From the IMG/VR virus record IMGVR_UViG_3300008261_000144, positions 1-25,334 of that record: a stretch of DNA of 25,334 nt, one strand, 5' to 3'. A program made the position numbers and the translations under genes. The DNA comes from a virus. Lineage: Duplodnaviria; Caudoviricetes. The notes beneath the pieces were generated by a model, which saw only the letters and a program-made list of their open reading frames with translations, made no database searches and was not told where the DNA came from. Shown here one piece after another: positions 1,879-17,447 of the stretch (the first letter of the stretch is position 1; every line of letters starts with the position of its first letter).

Positions 1879-2065
1879 AGTTGTATATCCAAATGTTTAT
1901 GTCCGACAAATTAAAAAAGCTGGAAATGACTTTATAAAAGAGGTTCTAAAAAATAGCGACCAAATTTATAAAAAGATGGACATAGAGAATGACGAGGAAC
2001 ATCGAGCATTCTTATATCAATTAGACAATATGGGTTTAGCATTTAGAAATTGGCTAAAAGATTAA
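1787..2065 (+). CDS. Hypothetical phage protein
   Basis: ORF with helical amphipathic sequence in a tightly packed operon; overlaps the upstream gene by about 92 nt. Confidence 0.65.
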   Translation: MEKEKFISNEKKLASLVSILPVLMDFMEDIKVVYPNVYVRQIKKAGNDFIKEVLKNSDQIYKKMDIENDEEHRAFLYQLDNMGLAFRNWLKD

Positions 2066-2235
2066 TAAAATATACTATCGTTTGGATCAGCCAAAATCTA
2101 GCCATTCCGTTTTGGGTAGTTGGTCATGTGCATTTATCTGTAAATGTGTATGAAGATATATATGAGATATTTGCATCGATTGGTATGAATATAATCGTAG
2201 CTATTGGATTTTGGATTGATTATAAAAACACTTAA
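2050..2235 (+). CDS. Small membrane protein (two hydrophobic segments)
   Basis: YTIVWISQNLAIPFWVVG and IFASIGMNIIVAIGFW hydrophobic stretches; TTG start overlapping the upstream gene. Confidence 0.65.
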   Translation: MAKRLIKYTIVWISQNLAIPFWVVGHVHLSVNVYEDIYEIFASIGMNIIVAIGFWIDYKNT

Positions 2236-2292
2236 TAGTTGCGGAATCTGTATAAAAATACTCGATTCAGCGGATAATAACTTAATATAATT

Positions 2293-2550
2293 ATGGAATC
2301 AAAAACCAAAGGTGTCTACTGTGCAGATGTAATAGTAAAAGCTATTCCTATCTCTATGAATTCCAAGCTACCTAAAGTCTTAAAAACTTTTGAAAATATA
2401 CCAATAGCTTTAGATAACAACTCAAAAGTTATTAATGAATATTTCATAAAAAGAGTGATGAAAAAAGAAAATATCTGCAAATATAAGATTAATTATGAGA
2501 TAATTATAAAAAAATATTTGTCAGGGTTATGTTATAATATAAATAAATAA
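2293..2550 (+). CDS. Hypothetical protein
   Basis: ATG with AT-rich leader, 85 aa, same strand as the operon. Confidence 0.6.
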   Translation: MESKTKGVYCADVIVKAIPISMNSKLPKVLKTFENIPIALDNNSKVINEYFIKRVMKKENICKYKINYEIIIKKYLSGLCYNINK

Positions 2551-2558
2551 TAAATTTG
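2551..2558 (+). promoter_or_regulatory. -7 promoter box TAAATTTG
   Basis: Exact TAnnTTTG directly after a stop codon and 5 nt before ATG 2564. Confidence 0.55.
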
Positions 2559-2563
2559 TAAAA

Positions 2564-2899
2564 ATGAAAACTTTTAATGTAATTAAAAAAAATGGAGAAT
2601 CAAGAGAATTTGATATCCAAACAGATGTAATCAAGCTAGAAGAATCATTTGTTAAATATGATATTTCAAAATATGATTCAGTTATGTTTCTTGCAAAAGA
2701 AAATATACAACAAACAATTTTTGATGTAAGCAATATTAAAGATTATTTTGTATTTGGTTTTGGTAGAAACAAAAAAATGAATATGAAGAATATTTTAACT
2801 GGAGGTGATTATTTTTTACTTGGAATGCATCAACCTTACATATTGTTTATAAAAAATAAATATGTAAATATAAATGAAAGAATAATTAACTTTTCTTAA
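2564..2899 (+). CDS. Hypothetical protein (very AT-rich)
   Basis: 111-aa ORF behind a promoter box. Confidence 0.65.
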   Translation: MKTFNVIKKNGESREFDIQTDVIKLEESFVKYDISKYDSVMFLAKENIQQTIFDVSNIKDYFVFGFGRNKKMNMKNILTGGDYFLLGMHQPYILFIKNKYVNINERIINFS

Positions 2900-2901
2900 A
2901 T

Positions 2902-3069
2902 ATGGAAAACATCAACTATGTAAATGCAGTAATGACAGAAATCAATGATTTAACTGACTGCATATATGAGTCTTTAGTTGATGCAGATTACAAAGAAATG
3001 AAATTAACCATACAGAACTTAATAAAAGTTCTTAGAGATCTAGACAAAACACATGAAGCATTACCGTAA
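2902..3069 (+). CDS. Small hypothetical protein, 55 aa (not in ORF track)
   Basis: Hand-translated MENINYVNAVMTEINDLTDCIYESLVDADYKEMKLTIQNLIKVLRDLDKTHEALP*; fills the gap between flanking genes. Confidence 0.7.
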   Translation: MENINYVNAVMTEINDLTDCIYESLVDADYKEMKLTIQNLIKVLRDLDKTHEALP

Positions 3070-7300: not shown

Positions 7301-10300
7301 CTTTGAGAACATTTTCCTGTCTTTTAATCTCATTATTTGTGTATTCAGAAACCTCAGCAATATTTGCAGCTTCCTTCATTACTACATCAAGTCCTTTTAC
7401 TCGTGATGGTTTAACAGCATTTACAACTTTTTCAGCCATTGCAATATATGCATCAATGTCCTCAACCATTGACGGATCAATTTTTGCAAAATCTTTAGCC
7501 ATACCAACCACTTCAGCTTGGTTTTCAGTTTTTAATGCCTTACGTATTGCCTTTCGTAATTTAAATGCATTATCAAGTCTTTCTTGGTAATCAGCTCTGT
7601 CAAATACTTTAGAAGCATAGTCAACAAATCGCTCAACCAATACTGGATTATCTAAGTTAAGATTGCTAATTCTTTTAATTATAACACCAGCTTGAGCAGC
7701 CTTTATTTTGCCAGTCTTAACCATACTACTAATAGCAGCAGCAAGAGATTTTCTCTTAGTATTCAAATCACCCTTAGCTTCACGAGCAGCTTTTGCCTCT
7801 AGTCTAATTTGGTCCTTAAGTGCTGACATCTCATTAACTGAAACCTGTTTTGCTTTAGGTTTACCTAATACCTTAGCAACTGATGGAGCTTTCTTAAGTT
7901 TTTCACCAAAGAATAATTTTAATTCTCTCTCAGCATTTTCTCTTTGTGTATCATCAGTAGTCTTATACCAGTCTGACTTTCTTAAATCATTTAATGCAGC
8001 ATCTACACCTTGCTTATGTGGATTACCTCTTTGCTCTACTGATAGCGTATATTTATCTTTTGCTTTTTGAATTGCTTCTTGTTTTTGTATACTAGATTTC
8101 TGCTTTTTAATAGATCTTCTTTTCTCAGGTTTATAAGATAATATTTCTTGATATTCATCTTTAATACTTTTTGGTAAATCTGAATTCATTATCATATCAG
8201 TTATCTGATCTTGAGTCATTTTGCTTGACTCTTCTTGAATTCTATATAGATCATCATATTTTCCTTCAGAATTTCTTATTTTATAAATCTTATCATATAA
8301 ATCATTGATTTTTTTACTTTTTGATTCAGGTATAACAGATACAAATCCTTTTTCAGTATTGCTTATATATTTTTCATCAAATGGTTTTACAATTCTACTA
8401 CCTTCTGTAATTTCAACATCATCAGGTTTGTATTCTTGAACTGTCTGTGCCCTTGTTCTATCTCCCCATTGTGCAACTGTCATACCATAGCCATTTTCAT
8501 CTGCTATTTTAGTTATATAAGCTAATTGGTCATTAGGTGTAAATGCTAATCCAGGAAATTCCTCATTAAATCTTTTTTCTGCTTCATCTATTAATTTTAA
8601 TGGATCTGAATTAAAGTCATAAACTTCATCTTTTGGTATTTTTACAATATATCTTGATGGACCAGTAACCATTCTTTCACCATCGGATGGTCTAGTGTAA
8701 TACATTGCAACACCACCAACTCTTCCGATGGCAGATCCTTCTGTTGAACTTGTTTTTAGGCTAGCTCCAGAACTTCTTTTTATTACATCATAATTTTTTT
8801 CACCTATATGGAAAAATACAAAATTACCTTTGTCATCTTCTGTAAGATTAGCATAATTAGAAGAATTTTCTGGAGTAATTTTTTGTTTTTTAACTTTACG
8901 AATTCCCATTCCATAAGGTGCAACAACTTGTTGTTGTTGTACTCTAGAAATATCTTCTTGATATTTTGATCTTATATCTTCTGGAAGTATGTCGTAAGAA
9001 TTTATAATAACATCTGGAACTCCAACTACTTCGCCAATTATATTATTTTCATATGTAGAATGATTTGATTTACCACCTATAGATTCTGGTTTTAAAACCA
9101 ACATTATATCTCCAATCTCAAAATTATTATCTCTATAAAAATCGTCTCTTAATGAATCATAATCAACAAATGCATTATAAGACTCTAATAATTTTTTTGT
9201 TTTAGTTGATTTTTTTTCTTGCTCTGATATAGCTATTAAAAATTGTTTTCTGTCAGAACCATTAAATAAATCATTATAGTTATTATATTTTTCTAATATT
9301 GTTTTTATATCTTTTGTAGGATTAGATTCTAAAATTGATGATTTAAATTTATTAAATTCAATAGATTGCTCTATTCTATTTTTAACAAAATTAGAAACAG
9401 TCCTATTAAACAATTTAGATTTCTGAGGAGATCCACTTATTATAAATATATAATCACTATCCTTTATTTTATTATCAAGCGTTTTTAAGTTTACTCCTGA
9501 TGCCCATATAATATTTTTATTTCTATTTTCTGGATCTAATGCAAATGACGGGCCTGCATCTAAATAATGTTTACCATTTATAATATTATCATCAACAAAA
9601 CCTCTTCCTAATTGATCAGCAACCCAAAACCAAACATTCTGATTTTTGTTTGCAATATCTTCTATTAGTAATCTTAAATCAATTAAATCTGATTTTTTTA
9701 CATAAGAAAGATTATATTTATCTTTTACCTCTACTTGTTTTTTAACTTTTTCAGTAGGAATAATTTTAGATTGTATACCTTCAGTAACTATATTTTGTCC
9801 AGTACTAATTCCTTTTGTTAAACTGTTTATAAAGTCAACAGCATTTTTAGCATTTGCTGCTGAAGAAAATATAGTTGGTAAACCAAGTTTTTTAGCTAAC
9901 TTATTAATTAAATTTTTAAATTGTTGGAATTTAGTTGTAGTTAACTCTTGTTGAGCTTCAGCCATAATTCCACCTAGTTCAGCTAAATATTCTTCAGCTT
10001 GTTCCGATCCGTCATAATTAGAAGTAAAACTATCTAATCTTTGTTTTAATCCCTTATCTGATATAACTGATTTTAGACCATTAGCTAAATCAATCATTGC
10101 TCCTGACTCAATACCTTTAACAGTAAGAGCATGATGCATCGCTTCATGCAACATTGTTACAACATCAGCACCATTTTCTAAATTTATATGAATCTCGCCA
10201 TCAACATAAGCACCTCTATCACCCTCATTTGATTTTTCACCTATACCTTGATCAAAATCTTGAGTTGTATTATGAATATAAATTTTAACCCCAGGTAATG

Positions 10301-13300: not shown

Positions 13301-13844
13301 CTTTTTCTGGAGTTATATTATAAGCTTTTTCAATTTGTTTTTGATTAGCTAATTCATAGTTTGGTTGTACTGGATTGCCGTTAATATCAGCAATCATCTT
13401 TGCATTTTTATTTAGGTAGTCATATCTATACTTGACATTTCCAGATTTTATTTCTTTATAATCGCCAGCACCTGTTACATCTTTATACCAAACACCTGAA
13501 ACTTTTTTATAGTTTTGATTATTTTCTGGATTTGAATAAATACCATCATCTGGAGATGAATATTCCGAACGCTTCTTTCGAACCATTTCTTGTGTAACCG
13601 ATGAAACAGCTCCATTTTTTGGTGTTGATTGTGAAACCTCTTTTTTTTTTACTAAACCTAATCGATTTACAAAAACATTATAATCTTTAGGAGCATCAAA
13701 ACCATTATTCAATAAATATGAGTGATATTTTTTAGCGTTATTCTCATCGCTTAAAGCGTTAGCAAATGCATCATAATTTGGTGCAACATCAGCATTATTT
13801 GCTTTTAAATAATCGTAATACTTCTTTAAATTATCGTTAGGCAT
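4311..13844 (-). CDS. Giant polyvalent internal virion/DNA-ejection protein (3177 aa) with zincin metallopeptidase and ART-like domains
   Basis: Last gene of the ejection cluster; Gly/Ala hydrophobic segments near 11600-12170; HEAMHH (10131-10148) plus downstream EEYLAE; ART-like VFFH...AMYYT...YIVKIP (about 8600-8830); helical C-terminal region. Confidence 0.8.
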   Translation of the reverse strand: MPNDNLKKYYDYLKANNADVAPNYDAFANALSDENNAKKYHSYLLNNGFDAPKDYNVFVNRLGLVKKKEVSQSTPKNGAVSSVTQEMVRKKRSEYSSPDDGIYSNPENNQNYKKVSGVWYKDVTGAGDYKEIKSGNVKYRYDYLNKNAKMIADINGNPVQPNYELANQKQIEKAYNITPEKVKKEEELRQKEIAKKAPELKQFKPAIADGKLFNIADKEQEKEFEKAHFEYVKSGKYQEDVEKVQKENDLNDILNTVTTDLVGSNEDEVISKLQGKLKKYEYLEIEPAGRGYDGIKIKNNVTGESKFINLDNWTTDRDNEEAKLLKGFLEVNIVNDEYIKKQKQVNDLRDRIESEKKTNPYNVIFLQKELDELLPQLDKEREKKLDYMSKDKYRSAAAFDKYEIDRINDNITKTILKKEDIKREASELNKYEQDVNESFKKGLITEEDYNVNYLPKINKRKEEIDNNIKSLKDDYRNISNEQSDVKNIAGNAFIVESERGNILSGTAFSFVQGFEQAARIIVEGDEYARGSAKGIITSQFAPESFSEEYLSSEKRNAFEQVVFGLANSGGAALAGAMTGGPVGSTLGLYASSYTNFRDQMNGPEFKDVSEGEKMLLAGSVGAITSLLEKYGLTKMFSKSPVNNKIINYVFSKSLKNLASDATAEMIDNAVEKEIKGLIANKVLKITGAGLIEYSTEAGQELTEIGAKELLNQVKGKKYFENPKTFGEVFERANKAGLLGLLGGAGMQSITQATLTAKQQLDKYQLSNIENTINNKDIKDLFVLNIKDRILSGEITKDQGQAELNSLKESEGVLRQIPDNLSNDDRYTSFKLINERENLRKQMEGKDPALVTPISNRINEINNELKTISENAVQVETAGEIPVQPETAVGGEMAQGEPQAEPKVAAEEGKKEQITAQINIAPLFDTKVTNVQEAESIRQSEMYQNYKKDMSDTAQRFGIQVDNIEDTIGGYEGTSEVSTVVNVTGDWNSIVDFAAVYGAIAPEVQDSTIAGRTVDPQTNEHNADRFDIGIDNQEAALKAAEDAGFSQDGFTMSGNKIMFFNIFDYPVSNFDEKYATFVDKYLEYGGTITSESKSAVQSEFIDSIRRSEILEQIERNAVQQGRWESIRDVIQKAKERNQSYTTKGSEVTQQNLVTEENVEQLRSQQTTPIAQKIFTAAKLAMKALPGVKIYIHNTTQDFDQGIGEKSNEGDRGAYVDGEIHINLENGADVVTMLHEAMHHALTVKGIESGAMIDLANGLKSVISDKGLKQRLDSFTSNYDGSEQAEEYLAELGGIMAEAQQELTTTKFQQFKNLINKLAKKLGLPTIFSSAANAKNAVDFINSLTKGISTGQNIVTEGIQSKIIPTEKVKKQVEVKDKYNLSYVKKSDLIDLRLLIEDIANKNQNVWFWVADQLGRGFVDDNIINGKHYLDAGPSFALDPENRNKNIIWASGVNLKTLDNKIKDSDYIFIISGSPQKSKLFNRTVSNFVKNRIEQSIEFNKFKSSILESNPTKDIKTILEKYNNYNDLFNGSDRKQFLIAISEQEKKSTKTKKLLESYNAFVDYDSLRDDFYRDNNFEIGDIMLVLKPESIGGKSNHSTYENNIIGEVVGVPDVIINSYDILPEDIRSKYQEDISRVQQQQVVAPYGMGIRKVKKQKITPENSSNYANLTEDDKGNFVFFHIGEKNYDVIKRSSGASLKTSSTEGSAIGRVGGVAMYYTRPSDGERMVTGPSRYIVKIPKDEVYDFNSDPLKLIDEAEKRFNEEFPGLAFTPNDQLAYITKIADENGYGMTVAQWGDRTRAQTVQEYKPDDVEITEGSRIVKPFDEKYISNTEKGFVSVIPESKSKKINDLYDKIYKIRNSEGKYDDLYRIQEESSKMTQDQITDMIMNSDLPKSIKDEYQEILSYKPEKRRSIKKQKSSIQKQEAIQKAKDKYTLSVEQRGNPHKQGVDAALNDLRKSDWYKTTDDTQRENAERELKLFFGEKLKKAPSVAKVLGKPKAKQVSVNEMSALKDQIRLEAKAAREAKGDLNTKRKSLAAAISSMVKTGKIKAAQAGVIIKRISNLNLDNPVLVERFVDYASKVFDRADYQERLDNAFKLRKAIRKALKTENQAEVVGMAKDFAKIDPSMVEDIDAYIAMAEKVVNAVKPSRVKGLDVVMKEAANIAEVSEYTNNEIKRQENVLKDEILAVYNSLVSDGVISKDMSLKEMQDIINSLNDPTTKMDSVEKERYIKSFLDGKLNLMKPILETIVRTKIDPFTGEELDIDNNAIELMKKVMDIDIADMSVRDAIKVVEAIDNFLNNNITSGLEAVVSNYEGVKNVNKLVNKGIKARPIKLLLNKTIGRFYSDELYSLPLLMEKLFNGVRNATKIMEMAGLSKLINGVNKANNQHNKILDDYSKQDFYNSKGFMDAKNVYERGMLAFLNRNLIGTEAEMKAELNRRIDMIKQSIQTLIENGDSKEVKMGEMYQEIFDKLNVNEGDIDVINSSASKSNREAVNWWINQWAKSYKELSDISLSVYNTQLGSDLNYTPDRYKKLSGESVQFDSDLIERNGAFSISIDYTDKNKTGVLMETTRPKVIPDDRYVSLDFDTNNSNSLQAALVDINTASAIRQVDGFVNSKGFKKLFTESDDRVLITRRINNYIRRAKGKKIAPRDTWDSVNKLTNFITSIGVGKALGGLNQAVMQTVPVIANTVINAGRFITVNSEMNDWINRTGAPISNRGLESQSTVESIDSRIDKKGETFDNALKNVAKLNQWYLKQFLSKPDVWVARSSFISYYIQDLKNRGISTDIDWNTHEADMDAVNYAQMMVDRQQNISDPMLAGEFLASEDSFRKIARKVVLPFASFILNQKARMYNDITTLYSKTATTEDKITAARSLGGLSVELATYQLIGFGIRRLYDIIAASLMGDDEDEEAKKKKMINATKYPIKSIVNDIVSPLPITDDLVTYGLNKALAEIPMLDEADIKKAVEDKNKALVLNGKEEMNDREKEAFIENLKKESEYQVFTDDFNGRKYGMIGIAGDTYKELIDISKLATTGEFEDEYQGRISKKYINEKDRKIVGYTIAPMVLYSMGVLPKDVGQISRNVVNRVKKRGITENQYNRITDVEKEIGRKVSGWESDLIKQKKEASTAIDELDFIDRNGGLTESQGKEYVKLLKTISQPTLSDIDRIKAGQTVDQILK
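8883..8897. repeat. 15-bp direct repeat copy 1 (TTGTTTTTTAACTTT; encodes KVKKQ on - strand)
   Basis: Identical to 9735-9749; 852-bp in-frame spacing. Confidence 0.6.
9735..9749. repeat. 15-bp direct repeat copy 2 (encodes KVKKQ)
   Basis: Identical to 8883-8897. Confidence 0.6.
10406..10597 (-). CDS. Candidate nested +1-frame ORF (63 aa) inside the giant gene
   Basis: Same-strand ATG within TAT-GGC, A-rich leader with A at -3, 63 open codons, located in an inter-domain linker. Confidence 0.35.
   Translation of the reverse strand: MAEQSLQNQNQQSNQNSSILSEGQKSLNRLKEMQYSKADGKAFVMSYKKPKNETNLTQQKDQK
11105..11236 (-). CDS. Nested (overprinted) +1-frame small basic protein, 43 aa, MPFKS family
   Basis: Hand-translated MPFKSKQQVKFLYSQKPQLAEKWRKENPKQNLKSLPKKVKKSK*; leader AAAAACAATAAGTGAAA-ATG; local GC-rich codon anomaly; resembles, from recall, standalone MPFKSxxQ small phage proteins. 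Confidence 0.7.
   Translation of the reverse strand: MPFKSKQQVKFLYSQKPQLAEKWRKENPKQNLKSLPKKVKKSK
13546..13650 (-). other. Candidate slippage/-1 frameshift site (A10) with 31-codon alternative-frame tail
   Basis: GTA AAA AAA AAA GAG at codons 65-69; -1 frame reads RGFTINTKKWSCFIGYTRNGSKEAFGIFISR* ending at TGA 13548-13546. Confidence 0.45.
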
Positions 13845-13860
13845 GTTTATATATTTTTAA

Positions 13861-15327
13861 TTACCACTGAATACCAGAACTTCCTTTTTTATTGCTACTT
13901 GATTGACCTGATTTAGCCATTTTCCTAGCATTTTCCCAATTTAATGATACTTCTGCTGGTTCTCCATTATATACAAATTGAGCTAAATCTTTTGGTGTCT
14001 TAGCAAAAAAGACAACATCTCTACCCTTAGAAACTTCAATTCCTCCATTCTTAGGTGTATATGTATAACCTTGTTTTAAACCACCAAAATCAGGTCCACT
14101 AGATGATTTTACCCAACTACCACTTGATATTGTTGCATCAGGATCAGCACCCCAAGCTCTTAATGTGGCTTTATATCCAGCTATCAAAGCTGCATTTTCT
14201 TGACTTTTATCTTCGTTTTTTCGGCCTCCGCCTCCACCTCCACCTCCGCCTCCTCTATCAGGCTCATCTAGTTCAACCTTTCTTTCTAGTCTTGAGTCAA
14301 TAGCGTCCAATACAGTTTGCTTTGCATCTTCAATTTGTTTATTTGTCAAATTTGGCTGATAAACACCTTGATCATCTTGAGCAAGCAATATAAACTTTTC
14401 TTTCTCAGATTCAATAAACTTATCTAAAGCATAACCATCTAAAGCAGGTTTTCCAAGTTGTTTGTTAAGTTCATTTTCTTTAGATACTCTGTCTTGAAGT
14501 TTTGAATTTAAATCATCATTATTATAATAAAAATCGTAATTTCCGTCAGTATTGTCTTTTAGAATACTAGTTATAGCTCTAGGATTGCTTAATATACCAT
14601 TAGCCAAATCAAGTCTTGCTCTTTGTATAGCAGGATTTTGCAATGCGTCTGTTATAGTCTTATTACCTAATTCAATAGTCCAATCTTCCCAACCTTTTGT
14701 TTTCTCGTCGACAATAGTTGATAAATCAACTTTATTATCAATCATATTTCCTGGTTGAGATATAGATCTTAAATCCATTATAGTAGATGGGTCAAATAAA
14801 CCATCTTGACCTAGTTGACCAATGATAAAGTTACCATTGTTAGGATCTACTTGAGTTGCTTTATTTCTTAAATCTCCTAATTGAGAGAGTCTATTGTTCA
14901 GTTCTAACTCAAGACCTGAGCCTATACCTTCCTGTTGTCTTTTTAATGCTTCTTGCATTTGTTGGTCATAACTTTTTGCAGTATTAGCAAATGTGGACCA
15001 GCTATCCATCAAGTTGTTTATTCTATTTTTATACTCAAGAGGTGTAATTTGACCAGCTTTTAATAAACGATTCCATTCCATCATTGATTCTCTACCTTGA
15101 TTTGATCCAGATAGAATCAATTGATTTAATGTCTGACTTTTACCTAGTTCTGTATTTTGCAATATTTTACTATTATCATATTGCAATTTATCAAGTAGTT
15201 GTTTTTCAGCTTCTCTTGCAGCACCTATACCTTGTATAGTAGTAACTAAACCACCAGTAAGCTTTGCCCAATCTATTGGATTACTTGCTGGTATAAATCC
15301 TGTATATTCGTTGTATCTATTTGGCAT
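13861..15327 (-). CDS. Internal virion/ejection protein (488 aa) with Gly10 linker
   Basis: Position between the pilot-like and giant genes; helical Q/N/K-rich sequence; ten Gly codons at 14224-14253. Confidence 0.65.
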   Translation of the reverse strand: MPNRYNEYTGFIPASNPIDWAKLTGGLVTTIQGIGAAREAEKQLLDKLQYDNSKILQNTELGKSQTLNQLILSGSNQGRESMMEWNRLLKAGQITPLEYKNRINNLMDSWSTFANTAKSYDQQMQEALKRQQEGIGSGLELELNNRLSQLGDLRNKATQVDPNNGNFIIGQLGQDGLFDPSTIMDLRSISQPGNMIDNKVDLSTIVDEKTKGWEDWTIELGNKTITDALQNPAIQRARLDLANGILSNPRAITSILKDNTDGNYDFYYNNDDLNSKLQDRVSKENELNKQLGKPALDGYALDKFIESEKEKFILLAQDDQGVYQPNLTNKQIEDAKQTVLDAIDSRLERKVELDEPDRGGGGGGGGGGRKNEDKSQENAALIAGYKATLRAWGADPDATISSGSWVKSSSGPDFGGLKQGYTYTPKNGGIEVSKGRDVVFFAKTPKDLAQFVYNGEPAEVSLNWENARKMAKSGQSSSNKKGSSGIQW

Positions 15328-16425: not shown

Positions 16426-16433
16426 CAAATTTA
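16426..16433 (-). promoter_or_regulatory. -7 promoter box TAAATTTG overlapping the upstream stop codon
   Basis: CTG TAA ATTTG TGT ATG on - strand; 3 nt before ATG 16422. Confidence 0.5.
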
Positions 16434-17447
16434 CAGAAAACTTTTGAATACTGAAGAGCCTATAGCAAACAATTTTACTTCTTCAGTTAAATCATTAGAT
16501 AAATACACATTCATATAGTATCCACGAGCACCAAATGATTCAGCTTGGCTATTTTTTACAGATATCAAGAAGTCAGTTATTAGTGGTATACTTCCAACAC
16601 TTGTGTCTACAATTATCATATTTGATGATATTCCTACAATTGTTCCTACCAAAATTAAGTTACTTCCTGAATTTTTGTATAACTTATCTCCAATACTAAT
16701 GCTTGAGTCAACATTAAAAGAAAAGTTCAATTCAACAGCCGTTGGATCAGTTATGTCAATGCTATTTGCAGATCCTACCCCTTGAGTAGATAAGGCCTTA
16801 ACGTCAATAGTGTTGTCAAATCTTCTTATATAAGCAAACCATTGATTTTCTTTTTCTACAAAGTAAGTGTAGTCAATTGAACCTGCCGATATATTGGTAT
16901 ATATGTCAGCAGTCCAAGTGTGAGTACTGTTTAACGATAACGTATTAAATACTTTTACCTCTAAAGGTTGCTCATTGAATATCGTCCTTATTTTAGAACC
17001 ATACTGCTGACCATAGAAATTGTTTCTAGTTGTGTTCACGTTATGCTTCCAAAGCTCACCTTCTTTAAAAGTATAAAATGTGCTATTCATTTCAGTCATC
17101 CAGTCAGGCTGATAAGACCAAAATGAATTCCATCCTTCAGATACTTTTGAATATGTTACCGTTCTTTTTGGTTCACATTCTTCAGTACTAAATCCAGAGA
17201 AGTAAGTTGTATCAGACTCATTATCCCAATTTCCTATTGGACAATCTTCATCTTCAGCTAGCACCCATAAAAGTGACTCACCTAAAAATAAACACCACTT
17301 AATACCATCCCATGAAACAGTGAATTCATCTTCGTTATATATAAATTCATAGTAGTTCTTACTATTTATAATACCATTAGAAATAACCTCTGTAGATACA
17401 GGCTCACCACCAATTGGAATGTAGTTTATTTTTATGCAATCACACAT
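16431..17447 (-). CDS. Tail nozzle/stabilization protein, C-terminal part, with extra Cys-containing N-terminal domain
   Basis: TVTYS..GWNSFWSYQPDW..FYTFKEGELWKHN..RNNFYG..KVFNTL..FVEKENQWFAYI..ARGYY motifs, recalled as the C-terminal portion of crAss-like stabilization proteins. Confidence 0.7.
   Translation of the reverse strand: MCDCIKINYIPIGGEPVSTEVISNGIINSKNYYEFIYNEDEFTVSWDGIKWCLFLGESLLWVLAEDEDCPIGNWDNESDTTYFSGFSTEECEPKRTVTYSKVSEGWNSFWSYQPDWMTEMNSTFYTFKEGELWKHNVNTTRNNFYGQQYGSKIRTIFNEQPLEVKVFNTLSLNSTHTWTADIYTNISAGSIDYTYFVEKENQWFAYIRRFDNTIDVKALSTQGVGSANSIDITDPTAVELNFSFNVDSSISIGDKLYKNSGSNLILVGTIVGISSNMIIVDTSVGSIPLITDFLISVKNSQAESFGARGYYMNVYLSNDLTEEVKLFAIGSSVFKSFL

Follow-up and report, generated by a model that had tools for sequence, protein, structure and literature searches.

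The stretch of DNA analyzed here, 25,334 nucleotides (nt) of the Caudoviricetes record IMGVR_UViG_3300008261_000144 in IMG/VR (we use "window" for this whole stretch), carries on its minus strand a giant gene with a frame-0 product of 3177 amino acids (aa). Codons 65 to 69 of this open reading frame (ORF) contain an uninterrupted run of 10 adenines (A10), which is the only A/T run of at least 9 nt in the window; the next longest are one A8 and one T8. An earlier note on this DNA had drawn attention to the run and proposed that a shift there would produce a 99-aa protein, and both the run and the size of the product were confirmed: one added A, equivalent to a −1 shift, leads to a 99-aa translation that was checked, ends in KKKRGFTINTKKWSCFIGYTRNGSKEAFGIFISR and stops at 13548-13546. 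The remaining frame after the run (neither 0 nor −1) yields 122 to 123 aa. The tail of the short product is basic and aromatic (9 K/R and 6 F/W/Y in 34 aa), and the rare codons remarked on in the overlapping frame-0 stretch are indeed present, with two of the four TCG codons of the whole gene, one CGT and one CGA falling within the 32 overlapping codons. The features of the locus are listed in Table 1.

Table 1. Positions of the features discussed, in window coordinates
Feature	Position	Strand	Basis or remark
Candidate A10 slip site, GTA AAA AAA AAA GAG, codons 65-69	13641..13650	-	In-register conservation
Predicted 99-aa short isoform (N-terminal module + KKK + tail)	13546..13844	-	Translation; fused database proteins
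64-codon N-terminal module, two ~33-aa repeats, common to both products	13653..13844	-	Four helices predicted
Hidden −1 frame, 31 new codons + TGA, basic/aromatic tail	13546..13641	-	Selection; AlphaFold2 (AF2)
Stem named in the earlier note	13580..13612 (13612-13603 with 13589-13580)	-	Weak; not backed as stimulator
Giant gene, frame-0 product 3177 aa	4311..13844	-	Last gene of structural module
HEXXH motif HEAMH, residues 1233-1237 of the giant protein	10134..10148	-	Sole HEXXH in the giant protein
Two genes upstream of the giant gene, 250 aa + 488 aa	13861..16091	-	phrog_13764 (virion structural protein), phrog_35506

Relatives were gathered via a 338-aa gene about 2.6 kb upstream of the giant gene, an anchor chosen because the run itself must not be selected for. 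This gave 22 loci, 17 of them with the 5' end of the giant gene visible, and 13 of the 17 carry an in-register A10 of the form xxA AAA AAA AAA G; two of the 13 are near-identical to the window phage and two form a duplicate pair, and the N termini of the 13 are widely divergent. Lysines (KKK) occupy the slip place in all 14 protein homologues found with residues 1 to 70. A metagenome scan with the 17 nt 3' of the run returned 105 loci, mostly chance matches, and wherever a long run preceded these 17 nt (12 of 12 loci) it was exactly A10. A pattern including the run returned 40 loci, 39 of which place it 24 to 97 codons into a long ORF, behind many unrelated N-terminal modules. AAG codons breaking the run in relatives, which the earlier note had regarded as evidence against recoding, did not turn up in these sets. 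AAA codons alone spell just 6 of the 82 KKK triplets outside the cassette, and other runs of at least 9 number zero or one per locus (14 loci of ~20 kb). Among cultured phages, an A10 followed by an aromatic −1 tail is found in phi38:1 gp101, Calle_1, Gundel_1 gp074 and elemoA gp21 (elemoA_7-9A), the A10 being the only run of at least 9 within 26 to 34 kb in phi38:1 and elemoA; the uncultured phage ctfjg026 has an A11 and then an aromatic −1 tail. In two of the loci (L018:12449, L019:13622), a second A10 to A11 run lies close to where the upstream gene ends, about 12 nt ahead of the giant start codon.

The sequence beyond the run was compared in the three frames for 12 of the neighbor-anchored loci (L017 was omitted as a duplicate) over 29 columns. 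The −1 frame has 11 invariant columns and a ratio of synonymous to nonsynonymous single-base variants of 17/19, compared with 5 columns and 11/30 in frame 0 and 5 columns and 7/29 in the +1 frame. Five of the 11 invariant −1 columns fall in a stretch that is invariant at the nucleotide level and thus equally invariant in frame 0; at F16, G18, G23, A27, G29 and F31, third-base wobble in the −1 frame coincides with exchanged residues in frame 0. Close pairs within a pattern-derived set of 94 unique cores gave synonymous to nonsynonymous counts of 64/45 for the −1 frame, 24/94 for frame 0 and 13/107 for the +1 frame, and columns outside the fixed pattern keep their chemistry too (R/K, W/Y/F, hydrophobic residues after FIG). 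The −1 stop lies 14 to 16 codons past the first residue of the motif in 67 of the 94. Both marks of dual coding, change in the −1 frame biased to synonymous and a kept stop position, are thus found, and in both alignment sets the conserved frame is −1 and not frame 0, whereas a lack of conservation in the −1 frame was what the earlier note had named as refuting; the substitution pattern argues that the hidden −1 frame is under protein-level selection. The +1 frame was rejected as a functional product, its lengths scattering from 10 to more than 60 aa with no motif.

The family core of the tail is YG[IF]x[IF]Gx[WY]FIG. In many relatives the tail is no more than a two-strand hairpin, each strand about 5 residues long, and the window phage has a longer form, which AF2 predicts to be a three-stranded beta-meander (strands 2-9, 14-22 and 25-33; mean predicted local distance difference test score [pLDDT] of 76). 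In the AF2 model of a database homologue (P0019), four helices are followed by the meander, the N-terminal module scoring 74 to 88 per block (residues 1 to 60) and the tail lower, at 55 to 65. A profile search of 1.84 billion proteins returned 16 matches, of which 14 are proteins of 63 to 106 aa in which an N-terminal module of the giant-gene type is fused in frame to the tail; a further match, of 67 aa, has the tail behind an atypical N terminus, and P0028, the sole long match of the hidden Markov model, was rejected as an unrelated repeat protein. All 10 of the short fused proteins that were looked up are singletons, each from a single contig, and we therefore consider them variants with an indel in the run rather than separate genes. 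A homologue search with the short protein P0015 found itself and one further short protein only. No match was obtained for 40 tails in Pfam (best E value, 0.22), no usable match for the tail in the ESM Atlas, and nothing at an E value of ≤0.001 with Foldseek for the tail against PDB or for the P0019 model against BFVD. In many relatives the N-terminal module is replaced by unrelated tandem motifs. Across one series of loci (L027 to L066) these modules are unrelated between phages but nearly always two copies of one short motif in tandem, of the FVPPSDA, KPWEKY, EKYPEY and YTKSFEEF types, which suggests a bivalent address tag. The hidden frame of phage Panino (L195:28245-28345) contains a tandem pair of WF[IF]G hairpin motifs.

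When loci were sought by the hidden peptide alone, with no use of the A-run, at least 120 were found (~170 estimated), 109 of them unique; 9 were dropped as not at the start of a long ORF, and 100 were kept as genuine. Among the matches listed, A9 to A12 precedes the peptide in 49 of the 100; G_GGA_AAG, which is also the slip site of lambda, stands in frame-0 register in 19 of the 51 others and off register in none (0.09 expected in register, from 1 in 17,041 downstream codons), and A_AAA_AAA/G or xxA_AAG accounts for most of the remainder. A_AAA_AAA lies in register at each A9+ locus, and one A9+ run of 49 ends in an AAG codon. With a simple H-type finder (score of ≥30), a pseudoknot was called after the slip site in 42 of 48 testable non-A9 loci among the matches listed, including 7 of 8 A7 loci, and in 3 of 48 A9+ loci; controls gave 23 of 577 at native AAAG/AAAA sites lying deeper in these ORFs, and codon shuffling gave means of 5 to 8. 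The spacer from slip site to pseudoknot is 5 to 7 nt in 43 of 44, and stem 1 consists of 27 distinct outer duplexes, arms from different loci pairing fully in only 16 of 702 combinations. N-terminal module families are common to both cassette types (14 of 47 cross-class matches). Both cassettes feed one peptide family and are mutually exclusive at the threshold of 9 adenines, so the family appears to use two interchangeable routes to one product, a heptamer or A_AAG tetramer with a pseudoknot or a bare A-run. In the pseudoknot-type loci among L067 to L185, the −1 frame across the pseudoknot reads as a Cys/Gly-rich peptide (CxCG), which is likely a by-product of the GC-rich stems. A distant homologue of the N-terminal module (L004:10180-10280) has TCA_AAG, then a 37-point pseudoknot, and another basic/aromatic −1 tail, possibly a third tail type.

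We propose that the A10 is a conserved slip site ahead of a protein-selected hidden frame, at which a fraction of expression would switch to the −1 frame and give the 99-aa isoform, and we hold this at a probability of roughly 85%; that some events enter the −1 frame at all is very probable. The recoding interpretation of the earlier note is thus supported by these comparisons. Several points weigh against it. The slip and the short protein are predicted from sequence alone, and ribosomes sliding on three AAA codons would fit the data almost as well as polymerase slippage. Four of the 17 neighbor-anchored loci (L022 to L025, one clade) are without any cassette, having no run, no Ser-rich linker and no open −1 tail while retaining the N-terminal module of L021; this clade has lost the cassette and is a natural knockout, and the short form is therefore dispensable there and not universally essential. 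L004 likewise has no A-run, and its −1 tail is different. The way in which the pattern-derived sets were built favors the motif; 9 loci and one duplicate were removed by eye as false; and for each locus the pseudoknot site was picked as the best among several candidates, a choice mimicked in the codon-shuffle control and not in the native one. The tail, finally, is without a Pfam or significant fold match, and its role is proposed by analogy.

As for the route, RNA polymerase would add one A at the A10, so that part of the mRNA would be in the −1 frame and the 99-aa isoform would appear beside the 3177-aa protein. We consider slippage of this kind somewhat the best candidate here because the pseudoknot is kept at A7 and lost at 9 or more adenines, the run length at which slippage occurs in vivo, and because the run is pure A. 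In vivo, runs of 9 A/T permit efficient slippage, and G_GGA_AAG, the heptamer of relatives, is highly shift-prone in E. coli (PMC5009743). In the window, what transcriptional realignment calls for, a pure and conserved A/T run of at least 9, is present, and no pseudoknot follows it, in keeping with a mechanism that needs no downstream RNA stimulator. A ribosomal switch, through two overlapping A_AAA_AAA heptamers or sliding on AAA codons and needing no structure, is distinctly less probable as the route in this phage. Ribosomal signals are clear in about half of the family, A_AAA_AAA is in register at every A9+ locus, and E. coli ribosomes slide on consecutive AAA codons (PMC4363877), all of which fits a ribosomal switch; it is opposed by the distribution of pseudoknots, present at A7 sites and not at A9+ sites, and by the rarity of AAG at the run end, though among bacterial ribosomal sites A_AAG is the strongest (PMC5009743). 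The elements of a canonical −1 frameshift are only partly found here, A_AAA_AAA in frame-0 register being present and a stem or pseudoknot 5 to 9 nt downstream being absent; the finder detected no H-type pseudoknot after the A10 in the window phage. The stem that the earlier note had placed downstream does occur in the minimum free energy fold (−9.2 kcal/mol), but it was rejected as a stimulator, its z score being unremarkable (−0.36 for 60 nt and +0.32 for 90 nt) except on a 50-nt window trimmed around the stem itself (−2.0). Slippage and ribosomal shifting acting together would be the least probable of the routes. With slippage as with sliding, some events would also end up in the +1 frame.

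What the short protein does is the least secure part of the explanation. By analogy, it may be an adaptor, made late, for assembly or delivery of the giant cargo, which it would load or meter in head assembly, and we tentatively favor this over an ejected envelope-acting peptide and over a dose-limiting tag. The short protein would engage the giant protein or its docking site via the shared N-terminal repeats, the beta tail would bind the capsid interior, the portal or a membrane as a conserved surface, and the slip rate would fix the ratio of short to giant protein; since the N-terminal repeats are swappable and the tail is conserved, the tail would have to bind something conserved. More speculatively still, many podovirus-like phages of Flavobacteriia might hide an unannotated small structural protein in the first 300 nt of the giant gene, with repeated exchange of a ribosomal pseudoknot cassette for a slippage A10, as an adaptor that loads or meters giant antidefense cargo into the head; the beta-hairpin tail would then be the conserved part, and N-terminal address module and cargo would be freely swapped.

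It is also conceivable, if doubtful, that the short protein leaves the virion together with the giant protein at ejection and acts on the host envelope or another host target through an amphipathic beta tail. Its N terminus is identical to that of the cargo protein, the predicted meander has hydrophobic faces, and crAss001 cargo proteins have been proposed to exit N terminus first, forming a channel (PMC10172136); however, the strands of about 5 residues in the two-strand hairpins of many relatives are too short for a membrane span, and no signal peptide is evident by eye. It is rather unlikely that the slip merely lowers the dose of the giant protein, with the tail as a by-product or degradation tag: an early stop would reduce giant output, the +1 frame terminates early too, and the tail has the basic and aromatic composition given above, but the Gly/aromatic spacing of the family core is kept across unrelated N termini and both cassettes, which a mere stop does not need.

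Were the A10 a DNA-level phase-variation tract, A9 and A11 genomes would lack the giant protein in part of the population. An A9 does split the giant gene in five deposited genomes (phi19:3, phi18:3, phi13:2, phi46:3 and Panino, among L187 to L195), and the 10 short fused proteins that were looked up sit on single contigs. This explanation is nonetheless very unlikely, since the run is exactly A10 in 12 of 12 metagenome loci, an A11 form was found in none of the viral contigs, and relatives with G_GGA_AAG and a pseudoknot could not phase-vary in this way; contigs from eight sequencing runs (six DNA and two RNA) also show no indel at the A10, the RNA contigs missing the site and contigs dropping rare variants. 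The A9 deposits annotate a small ORF and a large ORF, or a start after the run, and Gundel_1, of the same family, has an A10 in frame; they may reflect either a deposit error or a real variant. That the run and frame are kept by chance or as an RNA or DNA motif, with no protein made, is very improbable: the first 17 nt 3' of the run are nearly invariant among close relatives and stem 2 of the pseudoknot loci can include part of the YGI codons, but third-position wobble tracks the −1 frame (GGN, GCN, TTY), the Y/W and I/F exchanges preserve chemistry, and in-register G_GGA_AAG far exceeds its expectation.

Several known systems resemble this one in part. Orthologues of dnaX reach their short product by a ribosomal cassette or a bare homopolymer: the E. 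coli tau/gamma pair depends on a ribosomal −1 shift with a stem-loop, and that of Thermus thermophilus on polymerase slippage on a run of 9 (PMC5009743), and dnaX genes with an A10 have been assigned to slippage (PMC3711429). As proposed for the giant gene and its relatives, one gene gives a long and a short product and either route occurs among orthologues; in contrast to dnaX, the gene here encodes a phage virion protein, its site comes after about 2% of its length, and the new frame is a selected tail of 20 to 40 aa instead of a near-immediate stop. In E. coli copA, a slippery site and pseudoknot near the 5' end free the N-terminal domain as the small partner CopA(Z) (PMC7558416), which is similar in that 5'-end recoding yields a small N-terminal product. 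The window phage, unlike copA, has no pseudoknot (only relatives have one), and its predicted short form gains a conserved new tail. The −1 shift of the lambda tail-chaperone gpG/gpGT sets a ratio in a phage morphogenesis gene, and G_GGA_AAG is the g-t site of HCTV-5 (PMC5009743). The lambda shift is at the 3' end and gives a longer product in a long-tailed phage, whereas that proposed here is at the 5' end and gives a shorter one in podovirus-like Flavobacteriia phages; in place of overlapping ORFs before a tape-measure gene and a longer fusion, we found a 5' site in the last structural gene and a predicted product of 99 aa. Carboxysome CsoS2 A/B is a further case in which a frameshift leads to two forms, of a protein likened to a capsid-interior binder (PMC5009743), but it belongs to a bacterial microcompartment and no sequence relation is expected. 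Phage polyvalent proteins (PMC5512222) and crassvirus cargo proteins (PMC10172136) are resembled in part by the giant late protein, with its HEXXH, the swappable DdrB-ParB/ART domains of its homologues and the place of its gene downstream of a crAss-muzzle-like gene; in contrast to our system, the available text of PMC5512222 and PMC10172136 contains no occurrence of "frameshift" and describes no short isoform.

The mechanism as such is already known from dnaX, copA, lambda G/GT and CsoS2; the literature searched yielded no case in which it acts near the start of a giant gene for phage cargo and opens a selected hidden tail. No report of recoding in these giant genes was found in a search that did not cover subscription papers, including Cellulophaga proteomics, and the main text of the family paper uses neither "frameshift" nor "slippage" (PMC8776804). 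The predicted isoform would be a gene product overlooked until now in aquatic phages of a widespread group. Since the group has cultured members (phi38:1, Calle_1, Gundel_1 and elemoA), the proposal is testable at once and partly from existing virion proteomes; the predicted trans-frame peptides are WSCFIGYTR and EAFGIFISR for the window phage, AFGIEFYLWSGSFK for phi38:1, and NSFGFSYTTTR and NNWGFGIFCWER for elemoA. A short isoform sharing the N terminus of the giant protein at a set ratio would also offer a testable handle on how podovirus-like phages load or count giant cargo. With ~100 recoding cassettes, the family is a natural panel in which a bare A-run would take the place of ribosomal frameshifting and vice versa, an exchange so far known mainly from dnaX, and split-gene annotations, phi18:3 gp122/gp123 among them, would be explained by the slip site.

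The window comes from the genome of a podovirus-like phage of the Flavobacteriia type and has its virion structural genes on the minus strand as one module (PHROG matches 13704, 14543, 13977, 14478 and 13764), which includes a crAss-muzzle-like gene (PF25731). The muzzle-like protein matched 91 phage records, chiefly Flavobacterium elemo phages and the Cellulophaga phi38:1/phi19:3 groups, with identities of 35 to 40% among the 40 matches listed, and in the matched phages the equivalent gene order also terminates in a giant structural gene. The giant protein is likely a virion cargo or polyvalent protein. It has no match in PHROG or Pfam; its HEXXH is likely part of a zincin-like metallopeptidase domain, and MPTase is the commonest polyvalent-protein domain (PMC5512222). 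Effector Pfam domains were seen in homologues and not in the giant protein itself: the N-terminal homologues (P0001 to P0014) are 2551 to 3435 aa long with near-identical N termini, variable domains across the homologues include PF18763, PF18760, PF18838, PF23802 and PF25735, and these differing lengths and domains behind near-identical N termini are cargo swapping. The two genes upstream likely encode the other two cargo proteins, and their order with the giant gene matches that in phi38:1, phi19:3 and elemoA. From this synteny, the annotation of the syntenic phi18:3 gp123, which derives from virion tandem mass spectrometry, and the analogies in PMC5512222 and PMC10172136, we infer that the giant protein is packaged and ejected. 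The description "podovirus ejection gene" in the earlier note therefore agrees with gene order and analogy and finds no family match in PHROG or Pfam.

Searches by tblastn with the N-terminal module and with residues ~1968 to 3000 of the giant protein gave no match among cultured phages; the cultured relatives were found via the muzzle and ring-like genes. A first scan of host genomes for the cassette gave no match, and a second gave 23, of which 18 were chance and 5 genuine, on short contigs of metagenome-assembled genomes of discordant taxa. These five are likely binned phage DNA and point to no host. The 338-aa gene used as the anchor (16431-17447) encodes the crAss muzzle C-terminal domain (PF25729), apart from the 1353-aa muzzle gene, and its relatives are 325 to 439 aa long. 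The 488-aa gene upstream of the giant gene contains a poly-glycine GGAGGY repeat at 14217-14260.

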